A DNA stretch of 64,000 nucleotides, from positions 4,587 to 68,586 of the IMG/VR virus record IMGVR_UViG_3300014205_002439; one strand, written 5' to 3'. Origin of the DNA: a virus (taxonomy: Duplodnaviria > Caudoviricetes). The notes below the pieces were generated by a model, which was not told where the DNA came from, made no database searches, and was given only the letters and a program-made list of their open reading frames with translations. The position numbers and the translations under genes were made by a program. This document shows, in pieces, positions 4,146-38,637 of the stretch (its first letter is position 1; every line of letters begins with the position of its first letter).

Positions 4146-4454
4146 TCAAAATCCCTCTTTGACCCAATCGACTTCTGTTGGCAAGGTTCTCAAATATTTG
4201 AGAAACTTGTAACAGAGTGTTGCGACATCCGGCCCATTTTCGTCAAGGACATAAGCAACAAAAGGGAGGTACAAACCATTTCCTGCCGCCGGACGGACAC
4301 TAGCTTCGAAAGTATTCACCTGCACAATGTACAACCGCCCGTTGTAACCAAAAAAACAGACGTTATGTCTACTTTTACTTTGTCGAAGTTCGACATTCAT
4401 CAATGTCGAAAATGCTCCAAAGAAATCATCAAACTCTGCCAAGGAATCATCCAT
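4146..4454 (-). CDS. Hypothetical protein ending DWVKEGF
   Basis: ATG at 4454 overlaps the stop of the macrodomain gene. Confidence 0.65.
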   Translation of the reverse strand: MDDSLAEFDDFFGAFSTLMNVELRQSKSRHNVCFFGYNGRLYIVQVNTFEASVRPAAGNGLYLPFVAYVLDENGPDVATLCYKFLKYLRTLPTEVDWVKEGF

Positions 4455-5073
4455 GAGCGGCAAGGTTCATCATATACATGGTTGGCTCTAGCATATTGTA
4501 GTGGTCGATGTGAGCTACGCCAAGAACATCGAACGCTTTTGGATTGTTGTAACGCTTCCAAGCAGCATGCATCTGAATAGCACAATGAGCGTAAGGCATC
4601 TGACCAACTGCCGTACCAAGGCCGGGACAGAGGATAGAGTTGATTTCTGGATGCTTCTCAGCTTCTCGAAGAGCGGCAACGAACGCAAGATAAGCATTCA
4701 CCGTACCGCCAACAGTCTGCGGGACTCGCATCGTCGGAGCACTGATTAGATAAGGAATCGGCGTATCCGGGTTGGTGTTGCGAATGTCAACGACAACAGC
4801 TTGACCAACAAGCAATTCGCCATTGTGTTCAGTCCAAAGTTTGGACTGGAGTTCCATTTGCATGTTCCAGCCGAAGAATTCGCTGTAAACATAATCAATG
4901 CCGCCGTCCATGAATCCGAATGAGTTTGCCGGACTTACGATGGCATCCACTTCCATGTGCTCGCCGTCAGCAAAGATATCGCCAACTGAGACATGGACAT
5001 CCGATTCAGCAGCAAAGACCTTACGCCAACAATCGGCGAGGCCGGTATTACGATCCCGTAGGTATACTTTCAT
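4447..5073 (-). CDS. Macrodomain (ADP-ribose binding/hydrolase) protein
   Basis: DAIVSPANSFGFMDGGID, ISAPTMRVP, CPGLGTAVG; start reassigned to MKVYLRD. Confidence 0.88.
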   Translation of the reverse strand: MKVYLRDRNTGLADCWRKVFAAESDVHVSVGDIFADGEHMEVDAIVSPANSFGFMDGGIDYVYSEFFGWNMQMELQSKLWTEHNGELLVGQAVVVDIRNTNPDTPIPYLISAPTMRVPQTVGGTVNAYLAFVAALREAEKHPEINSILCPGLGTAVGQMPYAHCAIQMHAAWKRYNNPKAFDVLGVAHIDHYNMLEPTMYMMNLAAHG

Positions 5074-5548
5074 GTTTTTCCTTTTTGTATACAACAATAT
5101 TGAAGTTTGCGTTCTTTTGAAGAATGTCGCAAGGAGCGACAGCCCAATCAACCACAGGGAAGAAGGTATCGGAAATGTATCCGCCCTTCACTTCTGTTGC
5201 AATAATCTCATCAACAAGATTCTTTTTGAGGGCCTCTCGATAAAGCTCCCCTCCACCGATAAGAAATACCTTTTCGTTGTATTTCATACCTTCAGTAAGA
5301 GCCTCTTCCAGAGAGCGGCACACGTGCGGTGCGTCTTGTGAAGGAAGATGCCTAGAAACGACAATGTTACGTCGATCTGGAAGAGGCTTGAGCGGCAAAG
5401 ACTCCCACGTTTTTCGTCCCATGATGATGGGATGATTTAGAGTAGTTCTTTTGAAGTGCTTGAAATCTTCTTTAATATTAGGCCAAGGAAGTTGCCCTCC
5501 CTGTCCGATTCCACGCACTGCATCGTAGGCTACAATAATAGAGAGCAT
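5048..5548 (-). CDS. folA: Dihydrofolate reductase
   Basis: GIGQGGQLPWPNIKEDFKHFK, IIMGRKTWESLP, FLIGGGELY, DTFFP. Confidence 0.95.
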   Translation of the reverse strand: MLSIIVAYDAVRGIGQGGQLPWPNIKEDFKHFKRTTLNHPIIMGRKTWESLPLKPLPDRRNIVVSRHLPSQDAPHVCRSLEEALTEGMKYNEKVFLIGGGELYREALKKNLVDEIIATEVKGGYISDTFFPVVDWAVAPCDILQKNANFNIVVYKKEKHESIPTGS

Positions 5549-5755
5549 TTACCACCAAAACATCATGTGATCATCCATAATTTTCCAAATTGTGTAACCG
5601 ATAGTCAAAAGACCAGCCACAATTGTGACAATCGTTGCAATGAGGCCGAGGATGCTGGCCGTCACAATGATTCCACGCTGATCAGCTTGCTTTTTCTTTT
5701 CACGCATGGCGACGATTGCTGCAACAATTGTTGTAATGAGGAGTCCGATAATCAT
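5549..5755 (-). CDS. Small membrane protein
   Basis: Two hydrophobic segments; tightly packed in the operon. Confidence 0.55.
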   Translation of the reverse strand: MIIGLLITTIVAAIVAMREKKKQADQRGIIVTASILGLIATIVTIVAGLLTIGYTIWKIMDDHMMFWW

Positions 5756-6021
5756 TTCAGGTATCCGTACTCTTTATAGTAACCCAAGATTTCCTTAGCC
5801 TTTTCACCCTTTGTGAAACCGGCAGATTTTAGCATAGCTTCCACACCAAAGTCTACAGGAACTCGAAATACACCCTCAATAGGACTCTCGTGTTTGCCTT
5901 GAAAAAGGCCAATCACATAGTTGAAATCCTCGTTGTAATCACAGGAATTGTCCTTTGTGATGCAAACATAATGGGAGTCTTTAACTTTTCGAATTGCATA
6001 GTTCCACATAGCAATCTCCAA
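5752..6021 (-). CDS. Hypothetical protein
   Basis: Co-oriented ORF with ATGA coupling. Confidence 0.55.
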   Translation of the reverse strand: MEIAMWNYAIRKVKDSHYVCITKDNSCDYNEDFNYVIGLFQGKHESPIEGVFRVPVDFGVEAMLKSAGFTKGEKAKEILGYYKEYGYLK

Positions 6022-6055
6022 AAAGAAAGAGCGGCGATTGCTCGCCGCTCAAGGG

Positions 6056-6427
6056 TTACAACTTCGGTCTATTGATCTTGGGGATTTGAAACGTAGCAGG
6101 AATTTTGAACTCTCTAGGCTTTGGCACAGGGATAGTTTCCCCGAGCAGCTTCAAATGTTCAAGCACTCGTACCACAATCTCCACCGAGATAGCCTTATGT
6201 TCCTGCTCTGGAACATTTGCCTCCACCAATTCCCGAGTCAGAGGCTTACCTCTATTTTGACTCAGAAAGTGACCAATGTTGTGGATGAATTGATCACCCA
6301 CAGTCCAGAGACCGTAGATTGGAGAGGCGGCATATCCATGATGCTCAACGGCCTGTGCAATTTCTGCAACGGGAGCATCCTCGATTGGATCAGTGAACGT
6401 CCATTTGCTGTAACTGTGAAAGGACAT
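6056..6427 (-). CDS. Hypothetical protein
   Basis: TAATG coupling to the upstream gene. Confidence 0.55.
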   Translation of the reverse strand: MSFHSYSKWTFTDPIEDAPVAEIAQAVEHHGYAASPIYGLWTVGDQFIHNIGHFLSQNRGKPLTRELVEANVPEQEHKAISVEIVVRVLEHLKLLGETIPVPKPREFKIPATFQIPKINRPKL

Positions 6428-7830
6428 TAGAAACCTTTTGGAAGTGTAACAGGATCGACAACAGCAGTCTTCTGTTCTTCAACGACAACCTTCTTAGGCT
6501 CTTCCTTCTTGACAGGCTCAGGAGCCGGTGCAGGAAGATTCGGAGCCTGAAGGAGTAGGTTCATGCCTTCTGCACCGCCGCCCATGAAGTAGACAGGGAA
6601 CTTACCGTCCCACTTCTGGAGCTTTTCGCTCTCAATTTCGATTCGCTTGAGAGCAAGATAAAGGTCAGCCTTTTCTTGGGCCTTTTCGATTTCATAGCTC
6701 TTGGCGTCAGCCACAAGCTTGATACCGTCTGCTTCGGCTTCCTTTTCGGTCAAGAGAGCCTTGGCTTTCGAATCAGCCGTAAGCTGGATGGTCTTGTTCT
6801 TTTCAGTCTGAGCGGCAGTGTCAGCCATTGCGATGGACTTTTCCTGCTCAGCATTGAAGACACGCACCATCGTGGCAATGATCGACGGGTCTTTATAAAC
6901 AAAACCACCCGAGATACCAAGATTTGTAATCGTGATACCCTTTTCCAAGAAGTATTCCTTCACCTCAGCAACGACGCTCTGAATGTGAGGAGTGGCCTTC
7001 TTACGGAGTTCGTCCATCGGAAGGTCAGTGACTTCGATAGCAAAAGCAGTCTGGATCTTGGAACGAATTTCCAAATCCATGACTTTTGCAAGACTACCGT
7101 TCGGGTAGTTATGCAAGAATTTGACAGAGTCTTCCTTGGATTTGATTTGGGCAGTGCATTCCCAGCCAGTGGAAAACTCCACTTGATCAGAAGTCATAAC
7201 CCAAATGGCTTCATTCTTTGACGATGTACCGCTGTTAGCGTCAGCCGTCCAGACACGAGTTTCCGGAGATGTGTTGACTTTGATAAGGATAGCCGCAGGC
7301 TTCCAGTTACCATTCGGCCCAAATGTTTCATAGCCCGTAGGAATCCACTGTTGTGGAATTTTGACTTGTTGCGTAAGAACAAGGTTCTTACGGAAGAAAT
7401 CTTCGTTTTGGCTGACAGCCTGCTTGCTGCCATCATCGGTGAAAGGAATCAGGAAGCCGACTTCATGCGACTCAATGACTTGCAAATCCTGCGGCTCAAA
7501 TGGCCGACGACAGCCCGTAGAGGACAAGAGAATAAGGGCCACACAGCCCAACAGACCCGCTTTTCTGAACACGAACATAATATCTCCTAGATACAGTACA
7601 ACGCCTACAACGGCGATGATCGTCCAACCGAGAACGTACTGTGTGTTTCGATTGACGTGACTTGTTGCCAATTCTCGATGGGCTTCTCCGCTCGGATCAT
7701 CGAGTTGTTTCAGAGAAGTTGCAACATCAGATTGTGTATTGGCGACGTTCTGCTGCGACGTGTAACTGGCGTATCCCGCCACTACGAATAGCAACAGAAT
7801 AGTTTTGGCCCAAAAGGCAATGTGACTCAT
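6427..7830 (-). CDS. SPFH/band-7 (prohibitin-like) membrane protein
   Basis: N-terminal TM segments; I..HEVGFLIP, VWVMTSDQVEFS, GITITNLGISGG, then coiled coil and KWDGKFP, as in phage SPFH proteins. Confidence 0.75.
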   Translation of the reverse strand: MSHIAFWAKTILLLFVVAGYASYTSQQNVANTQSDVATSLKQLDDPSGEAHRELATSHVNRNTQYVLGWTIIAVVGVVLYLGDIMFVFRKAGLLGCVALILLSSTGCRRPFEPQDLQVIESHEVGFLIPFTDDGSKQAVSQNEDFFRKNLVLTQQVKIPQQWIPTGYETFGPNGNWKPAAILIKVNTSPETRVWTADANSGTSSKNEAIWVMTSDQVEFSTGWECTAQIKSKEDSVKFLHNYPNGSLAKVMDLEIRSKIQTAFAIEVTDLPMDELRKKATPHIQSVVAEVKEYFLEKGITITNLGISGGFVYKDPSIIATMVRVFNAEQEKSIAMADTAAQTEKNKTIQLTADSKAKALLTEKEAEADGIKLVADAKSYEIEKAQEKADLYLALKRIEIESEKLQKWDGKFPVYFMGGGAEGMNLLLQAPNLPAPAPEPVKKEEPKKVVVEEQKTAVVDPVTLPKGF

Positions 7831-8033
7831 TTGTGAACTCCGGGGTGGGGCATAGGGGGCGGTGCTACATCGACGATCTGATCTCCGACACGGAGATTCC
7901 TAACGAGTGATCGTCCAACGACGCCATCTCTGCAAACGAGAACGGCGTCATCCGGATCATCGAATCGCATTACGTTTTCTCCATCTTCGCAGATGGTGGA
8001 CGATTGTTCACGCTTTATGTTTTGAATGTTCAT
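7827..8033 (-). CDS. Hypothetical protein
   Basis: Coupled at both ends. Confidence 0.45.
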   Translation of the reverse strand: MNIQNIKREQSSTICEDGENVMRFDDPDDAVLVCRDGVVGRSLVRNLRVGDQIVDVAPPPMPHPGVHK

Positions 8034-9007
8034 ACAGCCACCGGGATTTCGATCTTTGGCCCACAGACGTGGTTTTCAAGTACAAAGTCTTCGAGCTTGT
8101 AGCTGAAAATGTCCGGAGCCTTGTTGATGGTCAGTGTGGGAGAATCGAGGACTGGAGAAGCAAGATATTCCTCAACAGCTTCGATTTGATCCCAATAAAT
8201 ATGAGCATCGACCGTATTGTGAACGAACTCGTGGGCGGTGAAGCCGCTTTGTTGAGCGAGCATCATTGTGAGGGCAGAGTAAAACTGAATGTTTGCAGGG
8301 ACGCCGATTGGGAAATCGCAAGAGCGTTGTGTAAGAACACCAGTCAATCGGCCCTCATCGTCCACAAGCACCTGATAGGTATAATGGCATGGAGGCAGCT
8401 TCATCTTGTGGGTTTCAGCCGGATTCCAGAGGGTGAATAGCATTCGGCGGCATGAGGAATCTTCCTTGAGTCGATTGGCAAGCCATGCCAATTGATCGAA
8501 TCCACCGGCTCCGTAAGCGTTACCATTAGGAGTCAAACCTCCTCGAAATGGCTCTTTTGAATCATCCCAACGGGGCCAGCCTGCTTGGTCGAAATCATTT
8601 TCAGTAATCTGCGTTGCAGTGCTACCAGTGGGGCCACCAATTCCGTTGCCGTAGTAGCCGCCAAAGTGGCGAAGTTGGAAGCCATAGACCGGGCCGAATG
8701 AACCGGGAGCGTAACCGTGCTTCTTCTCGAACTCCACATCAACCCAAGGATTCCAGATGTTGGCCCCGAGAGCCTGTAGATCCTTGTTATTGGTTGAGCC
8801 AGAAATGAACCACAGGAGTTCGGCCCAAATGGACTTCGGCCACACCTTACGGCGGGTGATGATCGGGAAAGCTTCAGTCAGATCGTAGCGGCTCGTGAGT
8901 CCAAAGATTGTTTTGGTTTTGATCTGAGTACGCTTGTTCGTGCGTTCCACTCCTTCATCAAGGATGAGGGCGAGGGCTTCATCATAAGACTGCATCTGAT
9001 ATGGCAT
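8030..9007 (-). CDS. thyA: Thymidylate synthase
   Basis: ELLWFISGSTN, GPVYGFQLR, LPPCH, QRSCDFPIGVPANI, DAHIY. Confidence 0.96.
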   Translation of the reverse strand: MPYQMQSYDEALALILDEGVERTNKRTQIKTKTIFGLTSRYDLTEAFPIITRRKVWPKSIWAELLWFISGSTNNKDLQALGANIWNPWVDVEFEKKHGYAPGSFGPVYGFQLRHFGGYYGNGIGGPTGSTATQITENDFDQAGWPRWDDSKEPFRGGLTPNGNAYGAGGFDQLAWLANRLKEDSSCRRMLFTLWNPAETHKMKLPPCHYTYQVLVDDEGRLTGVLTQRSCDFPIGVPANIQFYSALTMMLAQQSGFTAHEFVHNTVDAHIYWDQIEAVEEYLASPVLDSPTLTINKAPDIFSYKLEDFVLENHVCGPKIEIPVAV

Positions 9008-9551
9008 CGGATTTCCTTTTCGAATGGATTGACCTGAGTGCTGGGGCTAAAATTAACATTTCTTCATATGTGAAGAAATCATTCTTAACGACATTGCAAA
9101 TTTTGCAACATGGTACAACATTGTCTTTACAATAACCTATGTCATTACATTTGCGATCTAATCCGCATCCACTTGGATTTAGGTCGCTGCCGCAATATTC
9201 ACAAGGTTTGATTATCAGATCACCGTAATCTTCGTCGGTCAGTTCCCATTGCAGATTACGTTTTTTAGCAGCATATCTAGACCATGTCAAGCGGCCCTGA
9301 ATTGTTCTGGAGTAACTTCTATTACGAATTACTTGACAGCTTTTGCAAATCGGTTCAGTAAGGCCGTCTTTCTTTCGAATAGAGAAGTCCTCGATGTGTT
9401 TCGTCTTATGGCACCGATTACAAGTTCGATCTACGAGAGTTTGTTTTCGTTTACCAAGTTCGTAACACTTCCTTGAACAGAACTTTCGTTCGTTACAAGG
9501 GTAGTCATTGAAGACTACGTCACACTGAGGGCATGTGTAGGGTTGTTTCAT
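8982..9551 (-). mobile_element. Free-standing HNH homing endonuclease with zinc-finger N-terminus
   Basis: CEYCG...GLDRKCNDIGYCKDNVVPCCKICNVVK; visibly AT-richer than flanks; overlaps the thyA start. Confidence 0.75.
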
Positions 9552-9678
9552 AAAAATGGGGCATCCTTGCCCCGGTGTCATCCTTGACCAAAGTCAATCC
9601 GTGACTTGCGAGGAGGAATACTAATGGGACTCGTAAGATTTTTCAAGCTCTTAAGCAACTATCATAAGTGAGGACTAC

Positions 9679-10356
9679 ATGATTTCTAAACTCGGCGACA
9701 ACCTGACGGTACTTTTGGTTGCAAAAGTCGAAGAAGACTGGCAAGCATTCGGTACATGGTATTCAGTTCAAAAGAATCTACCGTATGCCAAATGCCTACT
9801 GACGTACATACGTCGGGATCATGAGACACCATTCCAAATGTTCCAGTGGGCCAAGCGAGTGGGTCTCAAAACCATTGGTGTTACAAGTCGTAAGGCAGAT
9901 CCATTAGTGGATTATCTTGCTTGTCTTGTAGCGGCATACAATGAGGTTGGGTCGAAGAGATTCTTATTACTTCCAAGTCATTGTATCGTGACCGATGCTT
10001 TGTCAGATGAACTCGTAGAGAAGTTCAATGAGCATCAATTATGGATGGATACAGAGTGTATGTTACCGGCCTATTCTGCAATGAATAGCTTAGCTCTGGA
10101 GAATGCATACAATGACTCGGTATTAGGTTCTGAACTGTCCCATGTACAGAAAACAACCATTTGCCGAGAAGCTAAATCTGAGGAGCCACATTCTATAGTC
10201 AGCTATCGTAAAGGATGTGGCAGATGGATAGATAAGATGAAAGGATGTCCATACTCAAGTGCCGGAGGACTGATTGAAGAGATTATGACAGTTAATGAAT
10301 CAAGAATCATCTCTCTTTGGGAGAAGATGGTTTGTTTATACAGTTCAGTTGCTTAG
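9679..10356 (+). CDS. Hypothetical protein
   Basis: GAGG RBS; 225 aa ORF. Confidence 0.65.
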   Translation: MISKLGDNLTVLLVAKVEEDWQAFGTWYSVQKNLPYAKCLLTYIRRDHETPFQMFQWAKRVGLKTIGVTSRKADPLVDYLACLVAAYNEVGSKRFLLLPSHCIVTDALSDELVEKFNEHQLWMDTECMLPAYSAMNSLALENAYNDSVLGSELSHVQKTTICREAKSEEPHSIVSYRKGCGRWIDKMKGCPYSSAGGLIEEIMTVNESRIISLWEKMVCLYSSVA

Positions 10357-10367
10357 GGGATCTAAAC

Positions 10368-10634
10368 GTGGAACGAAACTTTTTTAACGAAAACTATGAC
10401 GAAGAAGATGGAGAGTCGCCAGAAATGGAACAGTTCGTCAAAGCCAGCAAGCAAGACATTATGGATGTTATGCATATGGAATTGATTGAGAAGGAAATCA
10501 ACTCGAAGCTGCTGGAACAAGCTCAAGGTATCGCTCGATCCGACGTTTTCTGGTATTTTCGCAACAACCATACTAAGGTAAGACGTATCGAACGCATCTA
10601 TAAGAAGCTAAAGAAGATGGCCTCGGAGGAGTAA
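10368..10634 (+). CDS. Hypothetical protein
   Basis: Probable GTG start after an AGGGG RBS. Confidence 0.55.
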   Translation: MERNFFNENYDEEDGESPEMEQFVKASKQDIMDVMHMELIEKEINSKLLEQAQGIARSDVFWYFRNNHTKVRRIERIYKKLKKMASEE

Positions 10635-10635
10635 T

Positions 10636-11178
10636 ATGCCAATTTTCGCATTCCAGTGTCTTGACTGCAACAAGGAATTTGAGGAATTCACTTCCTTTGA
10701 CAAGGCTGGAATTTATCCGGGTGTGAGTTGCCCGGCGTGTGAGTCAGCTAATAAGACTCGACAAATCAGTGTGCCTACTCGGTCTGAGGAACAAGAACCT
10801 CAGACTGAGAAAGCACCTGCTGGAAAACGTAATTACGACTTCCAGTGCAAAGATTGCAATACCGTCTTTGAAGTATTCACTCAATACGACAGAGACGGCA
10901 ATTATCCCGATGTCCGCTGTACAAAATGTGACTCGGTCGATAAGATGCTGCTCATTTCGCAGATCAATATTGGTGGCCCAACCAAATCTAAAATGGCAAA
11001 CTTCGAATATCGTGCTCATCACAATATGGAAGGTGCCAAGGATTGCCGACGTAAGGCCGAAGCGGCGACTCACATGGGAGCCGATCCTTATAGCAGCCGT
11101 GAATTCGGACGGCCGCCAGATGATCTTGCAGCGGGTAAGGAAGGTGTCTTCCACCCGTTCCCAATGGCCGCTGAATAA
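10636..11178 (+). CDS. Tandem FmdB-like zinc-ribbon protein
   Basis: MPIFAFQCLDCNKEFE...CPAC and YDFQCKDCNTVFE...CTKC. Confidence 0.75.
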   Translation: MPIFAFQCLDCNKEFEEFTSFDKAGIYPGVSCPACESANKTRQISVPTRSEEQEPQTEKAPAGKRNYDFQCKDCNTVFEVFTQYDRDGNYPDVRCTKCDSVDKMLLISQINIGGPTKSKMANFEYRAHHNMEGAKDCRRKAEAATHMGADPYSSREFGRPPDDLAAGKEGVFHPFPMAAE

Positions 11179-11189
11179 TAGGCATCTGA

Positions 11190-11687
11190 ATGCTCAAAGA
11201 AAACAACATGATTACAAGTATGCTTGAGCAGCATACTCAGTATTACCATCATCGTATCAAATACCAAGAAGATCCGATTGCCAAGAAGGCACGAGAACAC
11301 TTCAATAAGCTGATTAAGAACAATATGGCGGCGTGTGCTGAGCTAATCACCAGCCACGAAGTTCGCAAGCTACTTGATCCATTCCCTTATGACGTGGTTT
11401 CTTCAGATGTTTTTCTTCTACAAGAAATCTCTATCGGGCCACTCTACACTGTTGGAACTAGACATGTGTCTTGTAGCAGGTCTGTTGGGCCAATTGTTGT
11501 AGATATGAGTGACCCTTTAGCAAGGGAAGGATTCGGCAAGTCCGGTGTTCCTCTCGTCATTGAGGGTAAGCACAGAGTCTTGGACGCCCGTTCACGAAAT
11601 GAGTTCAAGATTATAGCATGGGTTGGAGATAAGGTGCTGCCGATCCTTCAAGGTACTGATATTTCAGGGTGGACAGGACCTCGCTAG
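11190..11687 (+). CDS. Hypothetical protein, ParB-like C-terminal motif
   Basis: PLVIEGKHRVLDA resembles the ParB/Srx DGxHR motif. Confidence 0.45.
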   Translation: MLKENNMITSMLEQHTQYYHHRIKYQEDPIAKKAREHFNKLIKNNMAACAELITSHEVRKLLDPFPYDVVSSDVFLLQEISIGPLYTVGTRHVSCSRSVGPIVVDMSDPLAREGFGKSGVPLVIEGKHRVLDARSRNEFKIIAWVGDKVLPILQGTDISGWTGPR

Positions 11688-12159
11688 GGACGAGTTTTGC
11701 TACCGTTTCCCAGCGACCATCATTGCAAAGCGTTTTGATATTGGAAGAACTCACTGAAACCAGTTCTTCGGGTGGTATCAGGTAGATTTGGTGAAGTTTT
11801 TTGTTGATGGACTTCGCCCACCGCTCCACCATTCTGCAAATGTTGTATTCGTAGACGAAGTCGGTTTCATTCCGAACTCCACGGATCAAAGAAACTGTAT
11901 CTGATGATAGAGAATGTTGTGACGCAAACTTGGCGATATTGGTTTTACCAAGCGTTGTGATCGTGACATTGTGCAGGTGTTCGCAGCATTTTTTGACGAT
12001 CTTCAAGCGTTCTTCTTCGGAGAGGAGCGGGATTTTGCGAGGGTGAAAGCCGAGTGGTACATAGACTTTGTCAAACAGTTCGGCAGCCTGCTCAATAACC
12101 CAAAGGTGTCCCAATGTCAGAGGATCAAACGTCCCCGAGTATATCCCGATCTTCATCAT
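11611..12159 (-). CDS. coaD: Phosphopantetheine adenylyltransferase
   Basis: IYSGTFDPLTLGH, LIRGVRNETDFVYE, VSSSNIK. Confidence 0.9.
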   Translation of the reverse strand: MMKIGIYSGTFDPLTLGHLWVIEQAAELFDKVYVPLGFHPRKIPLLSEEERLKIVKKCCEHLHNVTITTLGKTNIAKFASQHSLSSDTVSLIRGVRNETDFVYEYNICRMVERWAKSINKKLHQIYLIPPEELVSVSSSNIKTLCNDGRWETVAKLVPSEVLSTLKYQYLEGSAAPYLQPML

Positions 12160-12828: not shown

Positions 12829-12859
12829 AGTGAAGGTATATATTTGGTAACGCCACAGA

Positions 12860-13309: not shown

Positions 13310-13310
13310 C

Positions 13311-29714: not shown

Positions 29715-29739
29715 GATGAATCCTTTCATCGGAGTATAC

Positions 29740-29774: not shown

Positions 29775-29775
29775 C

Positions 29776-29865: not shown

Positions 29866-29922
29866 CATGATACAACATCCGTGCAAACAGTTGTAACAAT
29901 CTGCTCAGCGGCTTGAAGACGG

Positions 29923-30321: not shown

Positions 30322-30368
30322 GATGCCTCACTGTAAAAGCTATTACTATTTAGAGAGGCATTCACAAA

Positions 30369-30596
30369 TCAGAAACCTTCCTTCACCCAATTCGCTTGAT
30401 TTGTTGGTTCAAACTTGTCTTTTCGGGAGTCAAACACCCCAACATGACCAGTTTCTTGGTATTCACCAATGCAAAACTCTTCACAGAGACCGTAGACCCG
30501 CAACGACAGTGCGTAATTGTAAGCTGCTTCAAGGCTAGGGAACGAAGTTCCAAGGCAACTGAGGGGTTCGAGTCCGGTCAATGTGAAATGAGCCAT
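30369..30596 (-). CDS. Hypothetical protein ending NWVKEGF
   Basis: TAATG coupling to the upstream gene. Confidence 0.6.
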   Translation of the reverse strand: MAHFTLTGLEPLSCLGTSFPSLEAAYNYALSLRVYGLCEEFCIGEYQETGHVGVFDSRKDKFEPTNQANWVKEGF

Positions 30597-31168
30597 TATT
30601 GCACGTAACCTGCGTATTTGTTCCAGACCACAAGATCGAAATGAGCCGGATGATAGTCCCGCTCCTTACAGTATTCCAGATACAGAGCTTCTAATCGCAG
30701 ATAGTGCTTCTTGGAAGGTGTCTGCTTTGGAACGTCCGGAAACTCGGCATCACGCATAAACTTCAGAATGTGTGTATCAAGACACGCCACATGAGAGTTC
30801 TCACGAGTATGCATGACAAAGAATCGAGAAGTCTTCATGCCAATACCGGGACACTTCTCCAGATCCCCAACAGTACAAGTTTTGAGATTCAAGCCAGAAT
30901 TCGCAATCCACCAGAACCCTCTAGCCTTGAGATTGAAGCAACCGAATCCGATCTTCTTCATCGCTTCTCGAAGTTTCTCTTCCGAGCCAAAGAACTTGAT
31001 CTTATCGAATGGCGATCCCGGAAGGCCGGGGACACTTTGCAGAAGCTTCTCAAGCAATGCCGCCGAACGCACAGCCTGTTTGCCAGCCACAGCGATACAA
31101 AACAGGATGTATTCTTCAAGACGCTTTGAAGAGAGGTTAAAATTGGTAAATTTCGTTGGATCAACCAT
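30596..31168 (-). CDS. HhH-GPD DNA glycosylase-like protein
   Basis: LEKCPGIGMKTSRFF, ACLDTHI, FDLVVW. Confidence 0.8.
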   Translation of the reverse strand: MVDPTKFTNFNLSSKRLEEYILFCIAVAGKQAVRSAALLEKLLQSVPGLPGSPFDKIKFFGSEEKLREAMKKIGFGCFNLKARGFWWIANSGLNLKTCTVGDLEKCPGIGMKTSRFFVMHTRENSHVACLDTHILKFMRDAEFPDVPKQTPSKKHYLRLEALYLEYCKERDYHPAHFDLVVWNKYAGYVQ

Positions 31169-31902
31169 TAGTTCCCCTCCTCTACAAAATCACAATACAT
31201 AAGTTCCCAAGCGATAGTGTATCCAACAGCGTCACTTACTCCAGTAATGTCATAAGATGGTTTACGGCTCATTTTACAACCAAATAAGACAGTTTTTTTG
31301 GTTGTATAAGTGCCATAACGAGAGTCGTAAGGAACTTGCTGAATAAGTACGACCTTCGTCGTCTTTTCAACCACATCTCGATCATACGCTCCGGTGGTAT
31401 AGACGATCAGATTTGGGAATCCTTCTTTCCATTTCTTAGACAATTCACCAACGATTTCTACTCGCTGAGTCAGAAGAGTTGGATAACTACCTCCATTCCC
31501 TGTGCCATATCCAGTAAGGAAATTTTTGGTGTGCAACTTGTACATACCGGGATCGCAATCAACTGGTTCATCAATCTTGATGATTGGCGGGATACAACCC
31601 GGATGATCATTAAACAAATGCGGCAAATCTTGTCTGATCTCTTCCTCAAGAGTCTTCACTTGTGTTTTATCGAAATACTCTTTACCGAAGGTCTGTTGCC
31701 AGAATTTCTTACACACAGCGGCGATCTGTACAAGTTCCGTCCGCATGTTATCGATGTCCGCAGTTTGTGCGAACACTTCGGCTTTGAGTTCTTCAAACTC
31801 TTCCCAAAGGACAGCAAGTCCTTCATGATAGGAATTGAGGTGACCGTGTTTTTTGATTCCACGGTCACATTCAGCATCTACAAGTTTTGAAAAGTCTTCC
31901 AT
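31168..31902 (-). CDS. Hypothetical protein with MazG-like helical N-terminus
   Basis: KKHGHLNSYHEGLAVLWEEFEELKAEV...ELVQIAAV. Confidence 0.5.
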   Translation of the reverse strand: MEDFSKLVDAECDRGIKKHGHLNSYHEGLAVLWEEFEELKAEVFAQTADIDNMRTELVQIAAVCKKFWQQTFGKEYFDKTQVKTLEEEIRQDLPHLFNDHPGCIPPIIKIDEPVDCDPGMYKLHTKNFLTGYGTGNGGSYPTLLTQRVEIVGELSKKWKEGFPNLIVYTTGAYDRDVVEKTTKVVLIQQVPYDSRYGTYTTKKTVLFGCKMSRKPSYDITGVSDAVGYTIAWELMYCDFVEEGN

Positions 31903-31921
31903 GACTTCAATCCTTCAGAGG

Positions 31922-32467
31922 TTACATTTCAGTAGTAAGGCTTTCGACATCATCGATAGCCTTTACGATATTATCCACTTCATCATAACGGGAGGAGTAA
32001 TCATCCGAGGAATGATTACCATAATTCCCATGAAGACCAGTACGGATATCAGAATTAAGCTTGTCCATTTCCTTACGGAGCATGTGTCCAAGAGACTGAG
32101 CATTGTCATGATTCTTGTCCCAAGCTTTGAGGTGGTTTTTCAAACGTGCAACAAGATACTTAGCCTCAACGACTTGTCGCTTCTTGTTGGTGTAATCTTC
32201 GTCGGACTTGGCACGTGCTTCAGCTAATTTGTCTGAACCACCTGCATCCTTATTCAAGGCAAAGGTCGAGGCGAAAATTTCTTCCAGTTCCATTTCACGG
32301 CTCTGGAGAATCTTCTCTGCACGAGCGAGATAGGCTCCGTAGTTATCGTAGAACCCACCTTCGGACATGATATACTGATTCAAGGTCGTTTCATTGAATC
32401 TTAGATTTTCTGGATCGATGATGACCTTATCAGATCCAATCTGAAGCTCTTCTTTACGAATGGACAT
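31922..32467 (-). CDS. UvsY-like recombination mediator
   Basis: Helical; ARAKSDEDY...LKAWDKNHDNAQSLG; adjacent to the helicase gene. Confidence 0.6.
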   Translation of the reverse strand: MSIRKEELQIGSDKVIIDPENLRFNETTLNQYIMSEGGFYDNYGAYLARAEKILQSREMELEEIFASTFALNKDAGGSDKLAEARAKSDEDYTNKKRQVVEAKYLVARLKNHLKAWDKNHDNAQSLGHMLRKEMDKLNSDIRTGLHGNYGNHSSDDYSSRYDEVDNIVKAIDDVESLTTEM

Positions 32468-32471
32468 TTCT

Positions 32472-34076
32472 TTACTCCTTAGTTTCTGTCATTATAGTAT
32501 CGGTGACTTCATCTGACAACTTAGCTTTTTTTGCCAATTCAAGAACTTTCGAGACATCTGGCTTGAGTTTTTTCCCAGCTTCCAGATCATTTAATTTACT
32601 CGTCACGTCGTCCAAATCGACCGGCTTACAGATAGAGGCCGCCAAATCGTGTTCAACGCTTTCGCTAACATCTGACTTCTTGCGAGACATCAGATCCTTA
32701 TATGTGTCATGCTGAATTTGATAGATTCGAAGAGTTGTTGGTTCAAACTTAAGGTAGATTGCGTAACGTTTGCGTCCGAAACGTTGTTTAATGACCCACA
32801 TTCGGCCAACCTTAACTGCATCCTCTCCTTTATTCTGGTTCAAGCTGAAACAGGCATCCAGAGGGCGAATTTGACCGAATGAATCAGCCAAATGCTCTTC
32901 TTCAATCATCCCTGTTTCTTGAGCTTCTTTTGAGCCACGGTTGGGTTGCATAGCAGTTACAAGGAACATTTGTTCCTCGCCCGCCATACCACGCAGTTCC
33001 TTCACAACCAACTCACGGCTTTCATGGGTTGGCATGCCGGAATGAGCTTTCATTTCACCAACATAGTCAACAACAATCATATCAGGGTGAAAACCATAGA
33101 ATTTAGCCTGATACAGATAGGCTCGAATTGTATTAATGTCGGCAGAGTTCGATGGGAACCATTTTACAACAAGTAAGTTCTTGTCGTCACGACTCTGGAC
33201 GACTTCTTCGATCTTATCGAAGATTTGATCTTTCACATCGTACAAACATTGTACTGGAAGTCCGGAGAAGACGGCGTCGAAACGTTCAGCAACACGGTCG
33301 CAATTGGCGTCACCACAAGCAATGTAAAGACACTTCTTGCCTCGAATGACGTTGGCGGCTGTAACGTTTGTCATCCACACAGACTTACCGATACCAGAAC
33401 CGGCGAGCACAGCGATCATTTCGCCACGCTTATACCCACCGCCCTTGATCTCGCAGTCAATGCCCTCGTATCCGGTAACGAAGTATTCGACATTCTCATC
33501 GTCTTCATTCATCCGATCATATCGCTCCTTCATGGACTTGAAATATTCAAGACCCACTTCGAAGTTCTTGTCGGTATTCATCGCCTGACGGAGCATGTCA
33601 TAGATTTTGCTCCACGTCTCTTCCTTCTCCGGGTCTTTTCCGAGAAGCGTAAGGCTCTTATTGAAAGCCATACGAAGAGCTTGCATCTTGGCGAAGTAGG
33701 CGATCTTATCGGAGAAATACTCTCGGGACTCAAGGTTCGGTTCAAAATAGTCAAATAGGCCGTTGACTTCGCCGAGGTAATAGAGTTGAGACTTGTCTTC
33801 TTTGGTCTCGTTCTTGAGTTCTTGAATAAGAACGGTACGGTCAGGCGTTGTACGATATTTTTTGAAGAACTCGTAAACGATACTGCACGCTTTTTGGTGT
33901 GCTTTATTGGTGAAATACGTTGGCTTCACCAAATCCATTGACTGCAAGAGAAATGTGCGGTCTGTAATTAAGAGAGCAATGATGGTACGTTGGAATTCCT
34001 CATCCCAACTAAACTGAGCGTCATCACCGCCTGCGTCTGGATCTTGCAATTCTGGATCTTCGAAATATTCGGACAT
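32472..34076 (-). CDS. Replicative DnaB/gp41-like helicase
   Basis: VLAGSGIGKS, IVVDYVGEM, TAMQPNR, LADSFGQIRPLD, KQRFG. Confidence 0.9.
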   Translation of the reverse strand: MSEYFEDPELQDPDAGGDDAQFSWDEEFQRTIIALLITDRTFLLQSMDLVKPTYFTNKAHQKACSIVYEFFKKYRTTPDRTVLIQELKNETKEDKSQLYYLGEVNGLFDYFEPNLESREYFSDKIAYFAKMQALRMAFNKSLTLLGKDPEKEETWSKIYDMLRQAMNTDKNFEVGLEYFKSMKERYDRMNEDDENVEYFVTGYEGIDCEIKGGGYKRGEMIAVLAGSGIGKSVWMTNVTAANVIRGKKCLYIACGDANCDRVAERFDAVFSGLPVQCLYDVKDQIFDKIEEVVQSRDDKNLLVVKWFPSNSADINTIRAYLYQAKFYGFHPDMIVVDYVGEMKAHSGMPTHESRELVVKELRGMAGEEQMFLVTAMQPNRGSKEAQETGMIEEEHLADSFGQIRPLDACFSLNQNKGEDAVKVGRMWVIKQRFGRKRYAIYLKFEPTTLRIYQIQHDTYKDLMSRKKSDVSESVEHDLAASICKPVDLDDVTSKLNDLEAGKKLKPDVSKVLELAKKAKLSDEVTDTIMTETKE

Positions 34077-34301
34077 TCATACCCCTTGCGTTCACATGTA
34101 TCTATCACTTATGAAATCTCTGGAAACTCTCGCAGAGACCGTAATAACGTGATTTTGCATGCTCTGACGGGGTCATTATAGCTACAGAATTAAACTCACA
34201 TCCACCTCAGTCTTAAAGAATTCTGTCTGCATCTTTGGGACCAAAAGATAATAGCCCGGTAGTTAGCCGGGCCATTAAACAATTCAGATTGTCTTATAGA
34301 A

Positions 34302-34868
34302 TTATGCACAACACATATAATCGTACTCGGAAACAGAGACCATTCCGGTACGCCAGAACTTCTCTTTAGTAATCCGCTTGCCCTTGAGTTTAACTTCGTT
34401 CCAAGTGATACTCTTACAGTAACCCTTGAACTCGGCGTCGATCTCCAGAGGCTTCAAACGATTCGGGCGATCCTTCTTAGGGATATACTTCCGTACCAGT
34501 TTCTCTAAGACCTGTTCCTGATATTCGCCGAACTTTTGTCGGTTGGCACCATGACGCTTACGGTTCTCCCATAGAAATTCCAGTTCGTTAAGGACTTGGT
34601 AATTCATAGGATCATCGATGTAATCATGGAGAGCTTCCATGCAACTTTCGATGTAGGTCTGTCTCTTAAAGTAAGAGGCCGCTTTGATCATTGCGATACG
34701 AAGGTCTTGAACAATGTCCTCCTGATCGTCGGAACAGTTGTTCTTGAGATTCATCTTCAAAAGTTGCCAAGCTTGATAGTGGCAAAGTTCTCCGAATTTC
34801 GCATCAAGCAAACCGTACTCTTCTTCGGTGACAGGAAAGCTATTGATGACATTTTGTAGGCTTTGCAT
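34302..34868 (-). CDS. Hypothetical protein (possibly sigma-factor-like)
   Basis: EDIVQDLRIAMIKAA weakly resembles sigma region 2. Confidence 0.45.
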   Translation of the reverse strand: MQSLQNVINSFPVTEEEYGLLDAKFGELCHYQAWQLLKMNLKNNCSDDQEDIVQDLRIAMIKAASYFKRQTYIESCMEALHDYIDDPMNYQVLNELEFLWENRKRHGANRQKFGEYQEQVLEKLVRKYIPKKDRPNRLKPLEIDAEFKGYCKSITWNEVKLKGKRITKEKFWRTGMVSVSEYDYMCCA

Positions 34869-34901
34869 AACGCTCCTTCATCCCACTTTGGTGAGATACT
34901 T

Positions 34902-36212
34902 CTATTTCCAAAAAGTTTTCAAACTACTTAGCTTACGGCCAAATTGAGCATGCATAGCCAACTTAAGACCCGGACAAAGAGCCGAATCTTGATGCACGAT
35001 AGACTTGACCGCATCAAAAGTCGCCTTAGCGACTGTCGGTTCAACAATGATACCATAACCGTCGTGAACCGTGAATCCAACACGAGCACCGAACTCCTTG
35101 ACCCCTCTGGAGATCAAGACAAGTTTCTCTAAACAGACTGTTGCTGCCGGTGCCTGCACCACAAAGTTTCTGACTTTGTATGGTGCATCGAAGGCATTTC
35201 GAGGACGACCATGATAATCCTCGACGATGCCGTTTGTTTCATATTCTCTTTGTTTGTTCATAACCCACTCGATTGACGTGGGGAATTGAACATGGATACG
35301 CTTGATCAATTCTCGTCCCGTTTGTTCGGGGACTTTCAAATTCTCGCTTAGGCCCCTTGCTCCACAGCCATAAATGACTGGAAGGAACATAAGCTTGCAC
35401 ATTGTTCGTTTGTTGTCTGTATCACAATCATCGCCTGTAATGGCCTTATAGATGCCAGAGTAAACTTCTCCGGAGTTGATGATATCCAGCAGGGCGGTAT
35501 CCCCGGTCAACCATTGCAGGACCGAGACTTCGCAGTTGTTGATATCGGCGTACATGAAAATGTCTTGCCGACTTCTTGGCTTCAGGGATGCTTTAACCTC
35601 TGAACCCATTGTATGGGGAATATACCCTCTGTGGTACGCCTTATGGCAACGGAGCCTTCCGTTCTTCTGACCCTCTAACTCGTAATAGGAATATACCGCT
35701 GTCTTCTCTATTTCACTCAAAACCGGGGTGGTTTCGATTTCTGGTAGGATTTCTGTGATTAGAGGTAGATGAAGGCTCTTATAGAGCTTCTTCCAACTTT
35801 TGTAACCAGCGATACGCTTAGACCTATTTATGGCCGCTGAGATATTTTCTGGTGCCTTTTCAGAAATCCCAAGGAAAGATTCTATAACCTTCAAATCGAG
35901 TAAATTGTTTGTTGGGTTCGATGGCTTTGGCAGGTAGTGCCGCAGATATGAAAAGAGAGGTTTGATGTCCCAACAAAGCAAAGTTTCGATCACTTCAGGG
36001 CAAAAGACGGAAGCGGTAAGAACGCCTGCGACGGTTCCCACATTCCCTCGATTAACGGGAATTTCGACTTTACCCTTAGCCATATACACAATGAGCCGAA
36101 ACTCCTGATTCGCTGTGAAGTCAGGAGTTTCGGGTTCGCATTTGACGAATGCAACCTTGGAAGCTTTAGAGTATTCCAAAAGTTGGCGACTTGCGTGTTC
36201 GACAAAATTCAT
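34902..36212 (-). CDS. Short family-A DNA polymerase
   Basis: Motif A (YADINNCEV), motif B (RTMCKLMFLPVIYG), RNFVVQAPAA, motif C (TVHDG); only 436 aa. Confidence 0.8.
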   Translation of the reverse strand: MNFVEHASRQLLEYSKASKVAFVKCEPETPDFTANQEFRLIVYMAKGKVEIPVNRGNVGTVAGVLTASVFCPEVIETLLCWDIKPLFSYLRHYLPKPSNPTNNLLDLKVIESFLGISEKAPENISAAINRSKRIAGYKSWKKLYKSLHLPLITEILPEIETTPVLSEIEKTAVYSYYELEGQKNGRLRCHKAYHRGYIPHTMGSEVKASLKPRSRQDIFMYADINNCEVSVLQWLTGDTALLDIINSGEVYSGIYKAITGDDCDTDNKRTMCKLMFLPVIYGCGARGLSENLKVPEQTGRELIKRIHVQFPTSIEWVMNKQREYETNGIVEDYHGRPRNAFDAPYKVRNFVVQAPAATVCLEKLVLISRGVKEFGARVGFTVHDGYGIIVEPTVAKATFDAVKSIVHQDSALCPGLKLAMHAQFGRKLSSLKTFWK

Positions 36213-36598
36213 TCTTCAACTTCAAAATTGATGCCGAGTTCAATGAGGATATCACGAGCTAACATGGTCTCACCATCTCTCACGCCGCCATCGAAGGCAT
36301 CGTCAATATTGCCACCGTAATGAGAATAGTAATCGTAATCTTCGTTGTCCCTATCGCCCCACGCAGACTGTTCGGCCAGCTTGATCAGATGTTTGATCGT
36401 CTTTGCCGACAGAGGCTTAACCGCCAGATCCGGAGGAATCGGAAGCGGAATTGTTGGCATGGGAATGGGCTTGGCATTATTCATCCGTTCAGAGGACCAG
36501 AATTGGGCCACCTCTTCGGGCGACTGGTTGTAGACATGAATGACGAGGCCATCGTCTTCCGGTTGCTCTTTGGTCACAAGACAGTCAAGTTCGCTCAA
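36209..36598 (-). CDS. Hypothetical protein
   Basis: Probable TTG start after an AAGGTG RBS. Confidence 0.5.
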   Translation of the reverse strand: MSELDCLVTKEQPEDDGLVIHVYNQSPEEVAQFWSSERMNNAKPIPMPTIPLPIPPDLAVKPLSAKTIKHLIKLAEQSAWGDRDNEDYDYYSHYGGNIDDAFDGGVRDGETMLARDILIELGINFEVEE

Positions 36599-36727
36599 TG
36601 TGTCACCTTTGCGATTTGAGTTCGAAAGCGGAATATACAAAGTTTGTGTTGAATGTGCAAGAGGGTAGGAGAATGTTGTGTAATCATTTTGATTTGGTTG
36701 GTACACAACGGGGGCCGAAGGTAATGA

Positions 36728-37075
36728 TCGATGTTTGATGTAAGTTACTGATGTATAATCTACTTAAACTTAGTGGCAGGAAACTGCGAAAAAAGAAGTA
36801 GCAACACCAGTAACTTACGACATCGACCACTACCGTGATACGAGGTAGTCTGAGACCGCCTAACCGCTCCCCTTAGTCTGTCGCCGCTCGCTGGGCATTA
36901 GGACAGACACTTTGTCTTCGGCATAATGCGAGCTTAGAGAATTGGCTTACCTTGGTCCTTGGAGATCAACATTAGCTTTCCGTTAAAAGCTGTTGAGGCA
37001 TGGTGAGATCAACCCACTCCCCTAGGTTTTTGAAGCACTCCTTGACTCAACTACCGCAGTTTGAGTGCTCCGGAT
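36728..37075. other. Structured intergenic region (ncRNA or origin candidate)
   Basis: Nested inverted repeats; see findings. Confidence 0.4.
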
Positions 37076-37179
37076 GAAACGATTGCTCGTTCCACATCCA
37101 GTGAATCTTAATGAAAGATCAGATTTGTTGCAATACCTATGGAGAGGATTTTCAATTCGAAAGTTAAGATTGATGTGAC

Positions 37180-37914
37180 ATGGCTTTGTGTCTTAAACTC
37201 CAGCATCCACAGGAGAACACTTTGAACATAAATCGATTCCAACCTGCTCTTGACTACGGCCTCGACACCGAAGAACTCAAGGCTTACAAAATCGCATTGC
37301 TGTGGGAGCAATTGACTCGTAAGCATTTTCCACAGAACAAAGGCTTGGAAAAGTTAGCAAAAGGCGATCCACGAAAGTGCAGTCTATTTCGTTTCTGTTG
37401 GAAATTGCTTCGTGTAACTCGTGGATTGCTTCGAGACGACGAATATCGACTCTATATTGAAGCCAATCTTCAGATCATCAAAGTTAAGGGTGGACACCTG
37501 AGTCCCAATGTGCTATGTGGAGACAAAGCATGGATTCGGTGGAAAGTCTGGAAACGTATGTACGACAAGAAGCTTGCTGAGTCTAAAGGTGAATCTGTCG
37601 TCACTATCGACGCTGATCCAAAAATTGTGCTGGCCCTCGACAAAACCAAGCGATTTCTGTTTGAAAAGTGTGAAGGTCAACCAACACTTGAGAAAATGCA
37701 GGAGTTTTTTGACCAACAGGTCGTCAAGTTGTGGATTCTTTCAGGGAAGCTATCTTACTTTTGGGTGGTGCAGTCGCCGATGCTTGCGGCTGTGGTTCCT
37801 TTGAAGCTCTTAGAGAAGGATTTGGTTTTCGATTCGAAAGTCTATGAGTCGAAGATCAATGATGCAGCGAAGACGTATTTCAAGCAGGAGTTCGCATATG
37901 AGTTTGGTACTTGA
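37180..37914 (+). CDS. Hypothetical protein
   Basis: 244 aa ORF. Confidence 0.7.
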   Translation: MALCLKLQHPQENTLNINRFQPALDYGLDTEELKAYKIALLWEQLTRKHFPQNKGLEKLAKGDPRKCSLFRFCWKLLRVTRGLLRDDEYRLYIEANLQIIKVKGGHLSPNVLCGDKAWIRWKVWKRMYDKKLAESKGESVVTIDADPKIVLALDKTKRFLFEKCEGQPTLEKMQEFFDQQVVKLWILSGKLSYFWVVQSPMLAAVVPLKLLEKDLVFDSKVYESKINDAAKTYFKQEFAYEFGT

Positions 37915-38254
37915 ATACAATCCTGTTGCAACTTGTTGGTTGACCTTTGTGCGTTCCTTGCCCGCTTCCAGAGGTGCGTTTTATCAGATTTGGGGCTTCA
38001 ACCAAGTGAATGAGTGGTATGATCAGTGGCCGATCCTTGTGTATTATTACGATCGAGAAGTCTTCATCAAGAACGGCCCAAATGCATTCAGAATGTGGGC
38101 CTCAGTATTTGTCGAGTCAATGGAAGGCGGGATCATCTGTGGGCGTTTCGGCACTCAAGACACTATCCTTCCTCGTGATTGGATTGCTGCACAAGAAGAC
38201 GTTCCAGAACTGATACCGTCAGTTCATGTTGATTGGCAGAAAGAAGGGTTCTGA
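37898..38254 (+). CDS. Hypothetical protein ending DWQKEGF
   Basis: Start reassigned to MSLVLEY. Confidence 0.6.
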   Translation: MSLVLEYNPVATCWLTFVRSLPASRGAFYQIWGFNQVNEWYDQWPILVYYYDREVFIKNGPNAFRMWASVFVESMEGGIICGRFGTQDTILPRDWIAAQEDVPELIPSVHVDWQKEGF

Positions 38255-38637
38255 TGATCGCTCTGCGACATTTTGGTTCAATTTCACAGTACATGATCGA
38301 GACTATTCGCCAACGACCCTCCGCTCCTATTGACGGAATGAAGATGTGCGAACTGTGCGTTACAAAAGGAATCACAGATGTCAATTACGTCGATCATACT
38401 GACGGTATCACCTATGTGCGACTTGATCAACAGTCGCTTGGTGCAAGAAGGCAATATTTCCATTCACTAACGCATGAAGAGTTTCGTTGGTGGTGGAATA
38501 ATCACCAACGATTAAATGGTGTCCAGATCGTTGAATCTATCCCATTGGAAGAGAATCAGGGCTGGGAATTCTATCGCAGCATCTCGTGGAAGTCTTCAGA
38601 TCAATCATTGGTTGATTGGGTTAGGGAAGGGTTCTGA
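38254..38637 (+). CDS. Hypothetical protein ending DWVREGF
   Basis: TGATG coupling. Confidence 0.6.
   Translation: MIALRHFGSISQYMIETIRQRPSAPIDGMKMCELCVTKGITDVNYVDHTDGITYVRLDQQSLGARRQYFHSLTHEEFRWWWNNHQRLNGVQIVESIPLEENQGWEFYRSISWKSSDQSLVDWVREGF

Follow-up and report, generated by a model that had tools for sequence, protein, structure and literature searches.

Why should small phage proteins with nothing else in common end in the same peptide? The question is raised by a 64,000-nucleotide (nt) stretch of viral DNA (positions 4,587–68,586 of IMG/VR record IMGVR_UViG_3300014205_002439; the window), in which four open reading frames (ORFs) end in DWVKEGF, NWVKEGF, DWQKEGF and DWVREGF, each followed by TGA, as an initial annotation of this DNA had reported. 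The shared ending, termed the tail, is robust, widespread, undescribed and clearly modular. It is probably, though by no means certainly, a short linear motif that can be moved between C-termini and serves as a handle on the small accessory proteins (carriers) of a clade of huge phages.

Four unrelated proteins in the window share a C-terminal tail

The four carriers and their tails are located at the following window positions (aa, amino acids).

4146..4454, minus strand: carrier A (P0001), 102 aa, orphan body; macro-domain gene/DHFR upstream, HldE downstream
4149..4172, minus strand: tail of carrier A, V-D-W-V-K-E-G-F, encoded by GTC GAT TGG GTC AAA GAG GGA TTT and followed by TGA
30369..30596, minus strand: carrier B (P0002), 75 aa, orphan body, in a replication/repair operon; its start overlaps the stop of an Ogg/HhH glycosylase-like gene
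30372..30395, minus strand: tail of carrier B, A-N-W-V-K-E-G-F, encoded by GCG AAT TGG GTG AAG GAA GGT TTC and followed by TGA
37898..38254, plus strand: carrier C (P0003), 118 aa, preceded by a 244-aa gene; an alternative ATG at 37844 is possible
38228..38251, plus strand: tail of carrier C, V-D-W-Q-K-E-G-F, followed by TGA, the A of which is the A of the ATG of carrier D (TGATG)
38254..38637, plus strand: carrier D (P0004), 127 aa, orphan, with a weak HNH-like PHROG match (E 0.016)
38611..38634, plus strand: tail of carrier D, V-D-W-V-R-E-G-F, followed by TGA

A MAFFT alignment of the four proteins is invariant in the tail only, relaxed BLASTP yields no pair at E<1, and Pfam and PHROGs assign the proteins to no family. 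The dissimilarity of the bodies that had been noted by eye is thereby confirmed, and the possibility that the four are full-length paralogues, which the initial annotation had raised against itself, finds no support. P0001 and P0004 are singletons among the 5.8 billion proteins searched, and tblastn of both against cultured phages gave no matches. Translated in six frames, the window yields exactly four matches to the pattern W.[KR]EGF, as does the whole 68,586-bp contig, and each match closes an ORF; across 200 shuffles, the mean was 0.01 occurrences and the maximum one.

The tail is strictly terminal and recurs in related contigs

The tail was searched for in IMG/VR as a back-translated pattern with TGA and TAA stops. 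The regular expression fixed W, [ED], G and F and missed variants such as …NWKEEGF and …NWQKLGF, so that all carrier counts are minima. Tails with either stop were found, often several to a contig. The viral loci, 417 kb in total, had 62 terminal and no internal copies; in at least 80 metagenome loci (294 kb) the tail was terminal at least 139 times and internal in none of the matches listed. The initial annotation had considered that the motif might show no enrichment at C-termini; overall, more than 200 terminal and no internal or N-terminal occurrences were found among the matches listed. Whole contigs contain nine (G001), seven (G002), six (G003) and at least two (G004) tails, all of them terminal.

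At least 186 distinct carriers of 35–217 aa were collected, which fall into 134 BLAST clusters including 112 singletons. Metagenome arrays comprise five to seven tailed genes, and one locus (L193) packs 22 of them into 12.7 kb. The consensus tail reads V/I/F - D/N - W - x - K/R/Q - E - G - F-COOH, with residues numbered backwards from the terminal Phe (-1). Positions left free by the regular expression are still conserved in a set of 51 carriers (Val at -8 in 30 of 51, Asp or Asn at -7 in 47 of 51), and residues -9 to -14 are enriched in E, D, K and P. A literature search for the peptide strings returned no match.

Selection acts on the peptide

The initial annotation had concluded from synonymous codon differences that selection acts on the peptide, and the larger set bears this out. 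In the 51 carriers, Lys is encoded by AAA (24) and AAG (14), Glu by GAA (30) and GAG (18), Gly by GGA (27), GGT (10), GGC (10) and GGG (4) and Phe by TTC (30) and TTT (21), and the wobble positions vary among the four window tails as well. The stop codons are TGA (27), TAA (18) and TAG (6); the observation that all four window genes end in TGA is correct, but TGA is not part of the signal. The use of all synonymous codons and all three stops argues for selection on the peptide rather than on the DNA, a ribosome-binding site (RBS) or TGA.

A nucleic-acid or translational signal would instead place the constraint on AAR-GAR-GGN as a Shine–Dalgarno (SD) sequence for a start that overlaps the stop (TGATG or TAATG), or on a nascent peptide that modulates termination or re-initiation. 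T[GA]ATG overlaps with the next gene are found in 41% of the 51 carriers versus ~7% of background ORFs, tight coupling to the next gene in 59% versus 31%, and an ATG within ~10 nt of the stop in 125 of the 186 carriers listed; the K-E-G codons are also purine-rich by nature. However, the TGATG share is inflated because an ATGA overlap is impossible after TTY. SD-like content is similar with and without a downstream start (82% versus 72%, p=0.18) and codon choice is the same in coupled and uncoupled tails, so that an RBS fails as the cause of conservation. The conserved W, D/N, V and F residues are irrelevant to an SD sequence, all three stop codons occur, and the stops of two of the four window genes are followed by gaps of 61 nt (carrier A, with a hairpin) and 47 nt (carrier B). 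The overlapping DNA or RBS signal that had been put forward as an objection is therefore hardly credible as the reason for the tail, and an RBS role of the tail codons may be a side benefit.

Bodies and tails combine in a modular way

The carrier bodies are mostly orphans, and the only known family among the payloads is the T4-type major capsid protein (MCP). Copies of its most conserved segments are present in 23 of the 186 carriers listed (12%), in none of the four window carriers, and form grafts of 25–60 residues that are up to ~70% identical to the MCP of the clade itself.

MCP residues 54-111 (G001 MCP): segment I, aligned with T4 gp23 residues ~82-139
MCP residues about 254-314: segment II, spine-helix region
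MCP residues 425-485: segment III, circularly permuted once
MCP residues 10-98 and 167-249: other grafts
L043:18936-19878 (G001 18.9-19.9 kb): consecutive tailed genes with MCP segments I, II and III, one of which has MCP 457-485 before 425-457 (circular permutation)
L169:3002-4002: five-gene tailed array, in which four genes consist of an MCP piece and the tail

The segment I alignment spans the most conserved first-quarter stretch of T4 gp23, known as Gol (PMC3014915). Other carriers (18 of the 186 listed, ~10%) have an N-terminal transmembrane (TM)-like helix followed by basic residues, an arrangement in which the tail would face the cytoplasm, and a few are Zn-ribbon or coiled-coil proteins.

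A search with one segment I carrier retrieved 81 small proteins, among them truncated MCPs, nine proteins with the tail described here and at least nine with a different tail; two proteins have a TM helix added in front. Segment I is combined with the present tail in P0006-8, P0010, P0013 and P0030. A second tail, KKKKxWRxIxxPWE-x-S with an acidic end, is found on the segment I mini-proteins P0058, P0066, P0068-P0072 and P0079; in P0062, a motif resembling it is located at the N-terminus. The occurrence of one capsid segment on two different tails shows that payload and handle are modular, the capsid payload being combined with exchangeable handles. Differing cassettes are also seen in a syntenic slot (G001 31.9–32.7 kb and G003 47.6–48.7 kb), which is bordered by a UvrD-type helicase and a ~90-aa gene on one side and by a MerR-type regulator on the other, and which contains two versus five unrelated cassettes, all tailed.

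An origin of the tail from the MCP C-terminus (…LLREGAKF…) was considered and dropped, as the supporting 'EGFRKYF…TIAN' neighbours look 2H-phosphoesterase-like (two H-x-T motifs, by eye, no family search). A ~490-aa neighbour of tail genes in six lineages is not an MCP and looks aldehyde-dehydrogenase-like by its N-terminal sequence.

The bodies are related to one another in the L193 array (L193:1-12724 of MDTG01031237.1, 120 kb). Its 22 tailed genes encode remote paralogues of 140–170 aa that retain just the tail and a faint N-terminal signature. Among 1.84 billion representatives, this family has 42 relatives, 39 of which have the tail, indicating that body and tail are inherited together there. 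Taking these loci together, grafting occurs alongside vertical inheritance. In an AlphaFold2 (AF2) model of one L193 carrier, built with the paralogues as the alignment, residues 1–146 fold confidently into an alpha/beta domain with a predicted local distance difference test (pLDDT) value of 91 (predicted template modelling score, pTM, 0.83), and the last ~17 residues, including the tail, drop to pLDDT 66–71. Fold searches with the L193 body gave no match at a template modelling score above 0.3. The window carriers were modelled at low confidence (P0001, AF2 pLDDT 46.8; P0004, ESM 0.36).

The L193 paralogues and their tail-retaining relatives are what would be expected if the carriers had no common reader and were extremely diverged paralogues, the tail being the most constrained part of one ancestral fold, such as a terminal strand or cap; small phage proteins do diverge quickly. 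This account is nevertheless very improbable. TM, Zn-ribbon, coiled-coil and MCP-graft carriers of 35 to 217 aa cannot share one fold, the tail lies outside the confident fold of the AF2 model, and one MCP payload occurs with two different tails.

Position -5 covaries within genomes

The single freely variable position of the tail is -5. It is V or I in 7/7 tails of G001, K in 7/7 of G002, K or Q in 6/6 of G003 and V in 3/4 of the source contig (G000); in the metagenome loci, it is Q or E in L193 and M in L169 and L244. The residue is thus uniform in a genome and differs between genomes (permutation p=5e-5). Gene conversion was rejected as the source of this uniformity, since the tail DNA differs at synonymous sites within each genome. 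With unrelated bodies and non-homogenized tail DNA, the pattern fits adaptation to a lineage-specific pocket. The covariation at -5 joins the capsid segment with two tails and the folded body with a lower-confidence extension as new support for modularity.

Outside the MCP, G001 and G003 have diverged so far (scaffold-like protein, 56%; portal-sized 633/636-aa protein, 65%) that the change from V/I to K singles out no partner. Three candidate readers were discarded. The (near-)invariant E-G-F-COOH ending matches the class III PDZ ligand [DE]-x-hydrophobic-COOH, partly by construction (the search pattern required [ED]-G-F); a PDZ reader was set aside in the absence of a PF13180 match in five contigs. 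A Dam methyltransferase beside Planctomycete tail genes is a generic phage/mobile-element gene, and a recurrent ~860-aa neighbour is a UvrD/PcrA-type helicase that marks the syntenic slot. Searches of the five contigs and of neighbouring genes demonstrated no partner, chaperone, protease or packaging link. Of the modular terminal docking signal for a common partner that the initial annotation had proposed, the modular, strictly C-terminal peptide element stands, but the common partner was not found.

Capsid targeting and protease docking as possible functions

As a special case of a docking handle, the tail could be a C-terminal capsid-targeting signal that docks carriers on the prohead core or inner shell for packaging and injection, as the C-terminal equivalent of the N-terminal signal on the polymorphic internal proteins of T4. 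The head module of these phages is of the T4 type (the MCP matches PF07068; gp21-type protease, E 2e-49), MCP segments occur in the 12% of carriers noted above, and in G001 three tailed genes with MCP segments, ~5 kb away from the MCP gene, directly follow genes whose N-termini resemble the T4 capsid-targeting sequence (CTS). The tandem, fast-evolving arrays of tailed genes resemble the internal-protein loci of T-even phages. T4 itself provides a precedent: its diverse internal proteins share a CTS of 10 residues, and Alt and gp21 are processed at their C-termini (PMC9026906). Against this function, TM helices are present in ~10% of the carriers listed, including the Gol-segment proteins P0007 and P0010, and most carriers, including all four in the window, are encoded in replication, repair or metabolic operons. 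The supposed MCP neighbour in six lineages is the aldehyde-dehydrogenase-like gene, and just those tails that have V or I at -5 conform to the [LI]-x-E rule for protease sites. Capsid targeting is accordingly regarded as unlikely. A resemblance of T4 gp67 and gp68 to gp23 was not borne out by BLAST (E > 0.2), and the T4 core proteins are without the tail.

Alternatively, the tail could be a degron or protease-docking element that delivers the carrier, and perhaps a bound target, to a Clp/Lon/FtsH-type machine, possibly by docking on a phage ClpP in the manner of the [ILV]-G-[FL] loops of Clp ATPases or of C-terminal HslU/HbYX tails. C-terminal degrons and ring-docking tails are established principles. 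Besides the gp21-type prohead protease, ClpP-family genes were found in four of five large contigs, namely G001, G002, G005 and the 91%-complete G011.

L284-L287: ClpP-family genes, at G001 141.8 kb, G005 54.7 kb, G002 214.6 kb and G011 115.6 kb

The G001/G005-type and G002/G011-type proteins have no mutual BLAST match, and the part of G002 that is syntenic with the start of the window contig stops just short of the G002 gene. Protease docking would accommodate soluble, membrane-anchored and MCP-bait carriers as well as early/middle-gene contexts. It would also be in keeping with the G-F ending and its obligatory free carboxylate and with the small size and low-confidence folds of the window carriers (pLDDT 47; 0.36). 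However, ClpP is common in large phages generally, is absent from the 68.6 kb of G000 and from G004 (both fragments) and has no adjoining unfoldase or adaptor. The residue before G-F is Glu rather than a hydrophobic residue. Docking to a protease is similarly unlikely.

Genome context and probable hosts

The source contig (68,586 bp) is estimated to represent ~12% of an uncultured phage genome of roughly 0.5 Mb, a size deduced from related contigs that are 10–48% complete at 51–245 kb. Two fuller tail-carrying records measure 459 kb at 91% completeness (G011) and 177 kb at 74%. The window contains a replication/repair module with PolA, a DnaB-like helicase, a gp32-like single-stranded DNA-binding protein (SSB), a RecA/UvsX-like protein and helicases. 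Cultured phages are all distant, with at most 32% identity in the best RecA-like match; the syntenic relatives G002, G004, L014, L016, L037 and L040 are at 40–63% amino-acid identity. The genes that adjoin the window carriers are as follows.

2705-4084: bifunctional HldE, auxiliary gene adjoining carrier A
4085-4145: terminator-like hairpin TTAAGGCACAG…CTGTGCCTTAA, between carrier A and HldE
4447-5545: macro-domain protein and DHFR, auxiliary genes adjoining carrier A
30596-31165: Ogg/HhH glycosylase-like protein, auxiliary gene adjoining carrier B
38639-39067: half-size EamA-type transporter gene, with its ATG at 38639, 1 nt past carrier D

The homologues of the gene upstream of carrier C in L016 and L037 likewise precede a tailed gene with an unrelated body.

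Matches to the pattern in cellular genomes are mostly fortuitous, and those that end real ORFs concentrate in Planctomycetota. The Planctomycetota genes occur once per genome, have unrelated bodies and are located in islands with a Dam methyltransferase and other genes of phage contigs.

L147:2088-3553, L159:2181-3942 and L098:3451-5215: Planctomycetota islands with single or paired tailed genes, together with Dam methyltransferase and other genes common to phage contigs

This concentration in phage-like islands suggests Planctomycetota as the hosts of the clade, an assignment made with moderate confidence. Near the tailed gene of L097, a defence-type AAA_15/AAA_21 ATPase is encoded. A contig binned as Candidatus Nanopelagicales (L095:588-1752, GC content 34%) has three pattern matches within 2 kb. 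One of them closes a real ORF, whose open frame of 168 codons (156 aa from the first ATG) has internal ~30-residue repeats and finishes with the tail; the other two close frames of just 8–9 codons. L095 is probably a phage contig in the bin of a metagenome-assembled genome.

Proposed role of the tail

We infer a common reader that contacts the tail. The clade, uncultured huge phages with T4-type heads and genomes of ~0.2–0.5 Mb that probably infect Planctomycetota, would attach the handle, on a flexible charged linker, to a large and fast-turning-over repertoire of small accessory proteins. One cytoplasmic reader would grip the Trp at -6, which is invariant, together with the Gly-Phe end and its free alpha-carboxylate; such a requirement for a free carboxylate would account for the lack of internal copies. 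The residue at -5 would adapt the tail to the reader that the respective phage lineage uses. The body, which varies, would serve as payload or bait (orphan domains, single-pass membrane anchors or conserved capsid segments, including the Gol-equivalent stretch), and the handle would bring the reader to the target of the body or the body to the reader. The occurrence of tailed genes in Planctomycetota makes a host protein possible as the reader. On a rough estimate, a host hub ranks first, a protease or unfoldase and another phage hub rank equally behind it and the head-assembly core ranks last, each being unlikely when taken singly.

Several observations weigh against a portable handle with a common reader. 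The -5 covariation could in principle stem from shared ancestry of the tail-coding segments instead of a reader, and the L193 family keeps its tail in 39 of 42 relatives. The load of tails is uneven, with three in the 91%-complete 459-kb genome versus 22 in 12.7 kb of L193. PF13180 (PDZ_2) had no match in G001, G002, G004, G005 and G011, although 14/14 control genomes were matched (host PDZ proteins and other PDZ models were not searched). Neighbour enrichment over 69 sources reflected lineage synteny only, with no recurrently adjacent gene. No unfoldase or adaptor adjoins the phage ClpP genes and no link between ClpP and the tail was demonstrated in these contigs, and the carriers are predicted proteins.

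A more specific version of the handle is a bait-and-handle system. The bodies would bind different host or phage targets, some of them as decoys that mimic the best-conserved capsid epitopes sensed by Lit-type proteases or capsid-sensing immunity, and the tail would hand the target to one phage machine, for example ClpP, for destruction or sequestration. This version is rather improbable; if true, it would be the bacterial-virus counterpart of the viral F-box/PRANC adaptor families.

The tail groups roughly 200 small orphan proteins of huge phages into one functional class. Most huge-phage genes encode small orphans, and the peptide offers an experimental hook as a bait or reporter tag. The capsid-segment payloads on at least two tails point to an undescribed capsid mimicry by phages that could bear on assembly control or on evasion of capsid-sensing immunity. 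The tail may also help to assign hosts, given the tailed genes in phage-like islands of Planctomycetota.

Comparison with known systems

C-terminal docking tips are known from SSB (…DDDIPF), from the acidic tails of T7 gp2.5 and gp4 and from the T4 gp45-clamp-binding C-termini of gp43, gp33 and gp55. Like them, the present element is short, has an aromatic/hydrophobic anchor and must end in a free C-terminus, and it would likewise be read by a hub protein; one tail type can be shared by several different clients. In those systems, a few conserved replication or transcription proteins are involved, whereas here the carriers are dozens of orphan mini-proteins per clade. Compared with the SSB and T7 tips, the terminal Phe is invariant and strictly terminal, but for E and D there is no more than an enrichment at -9 to -14, and K/R occupies -4. 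The tail is absent from the window's gp32-like SSB, RecA-like protein, PolA and DnaB-like helicase, which end otherwise. The clamp-binding motif QL[SD]LF does not match, as the logo V-[DN]-W-x-K-E-G-F contains neither Q nor L-x-L-F. Among protease signals, the ClpP-docking motif [ILV]-G-[FL] shares G-F with the tail, which however has Glu before G-F and is terminal instead of lying in a loop; the non-polar LAA-type end of an ssrA-like degron differs from the K-E-G-F ending.

The Gol region of T4 gp23 activates the e14 Lit protease and binds EF-Tu, and Gol also has biological activity in T4 as a free peptide. On the carriers, MCP segment I corresponds to the same conserved first-quarter stretch, which T4 has within its full capsid protein and which here, as far as the genes tell, is a separate mini-protein on a handle. 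The poxvirus ankyrin/PRANC (F-box-like) families are large and fast-evolving and combine a variable body with a constant C-terminal docking element for one host machine. A variable body, which here would bind a target, and a constant C-terminal element are common to the two cases, but the PRANC element, a ligand of Skp1/cullin ligases in eukaryotes, is a folded domain, and the tail is an 8-residue peptide.

The T4 CTS is a ~10-residue terminal peptide on the diverse, poorly conserved internal proteins IPI-III and Alt and is portable to foreign proteins (PMC9026906). It differs from the tail in being N-terminal, in being removed at L/I-x-E by gp21 and in its unrelated sequence; the tail is C-terminal, with no N-terminal occurrence among the matches listed, and is also found on membrane proteins. 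The sequence x(-5)-K-E|G fits [LIV]-x-E in the V/I lineages G000 and G001 but not where -5 is K, Q, E or M. CTS-like N-termini are located on other proteins of these phages. An N-terminal motif that can be read as CTS-like, M-x-F-K-[DE]-[WF]-[LF] (window 810-40478), is likewise found at the start of a Zn-ribbon-containing, 862-aa helicase of the UvrD/PcrA type (L044:8982-11567 in G001, with homologues in G003 and G002), so that a pure capsid-targeting reading of that motif needs care. As a short terminal peptide on unrelated small proteins of phages with T4-type heads, often encoded in variable gene arrays, the CTS nonetheless appears to be the closest functional analogue of the tail.

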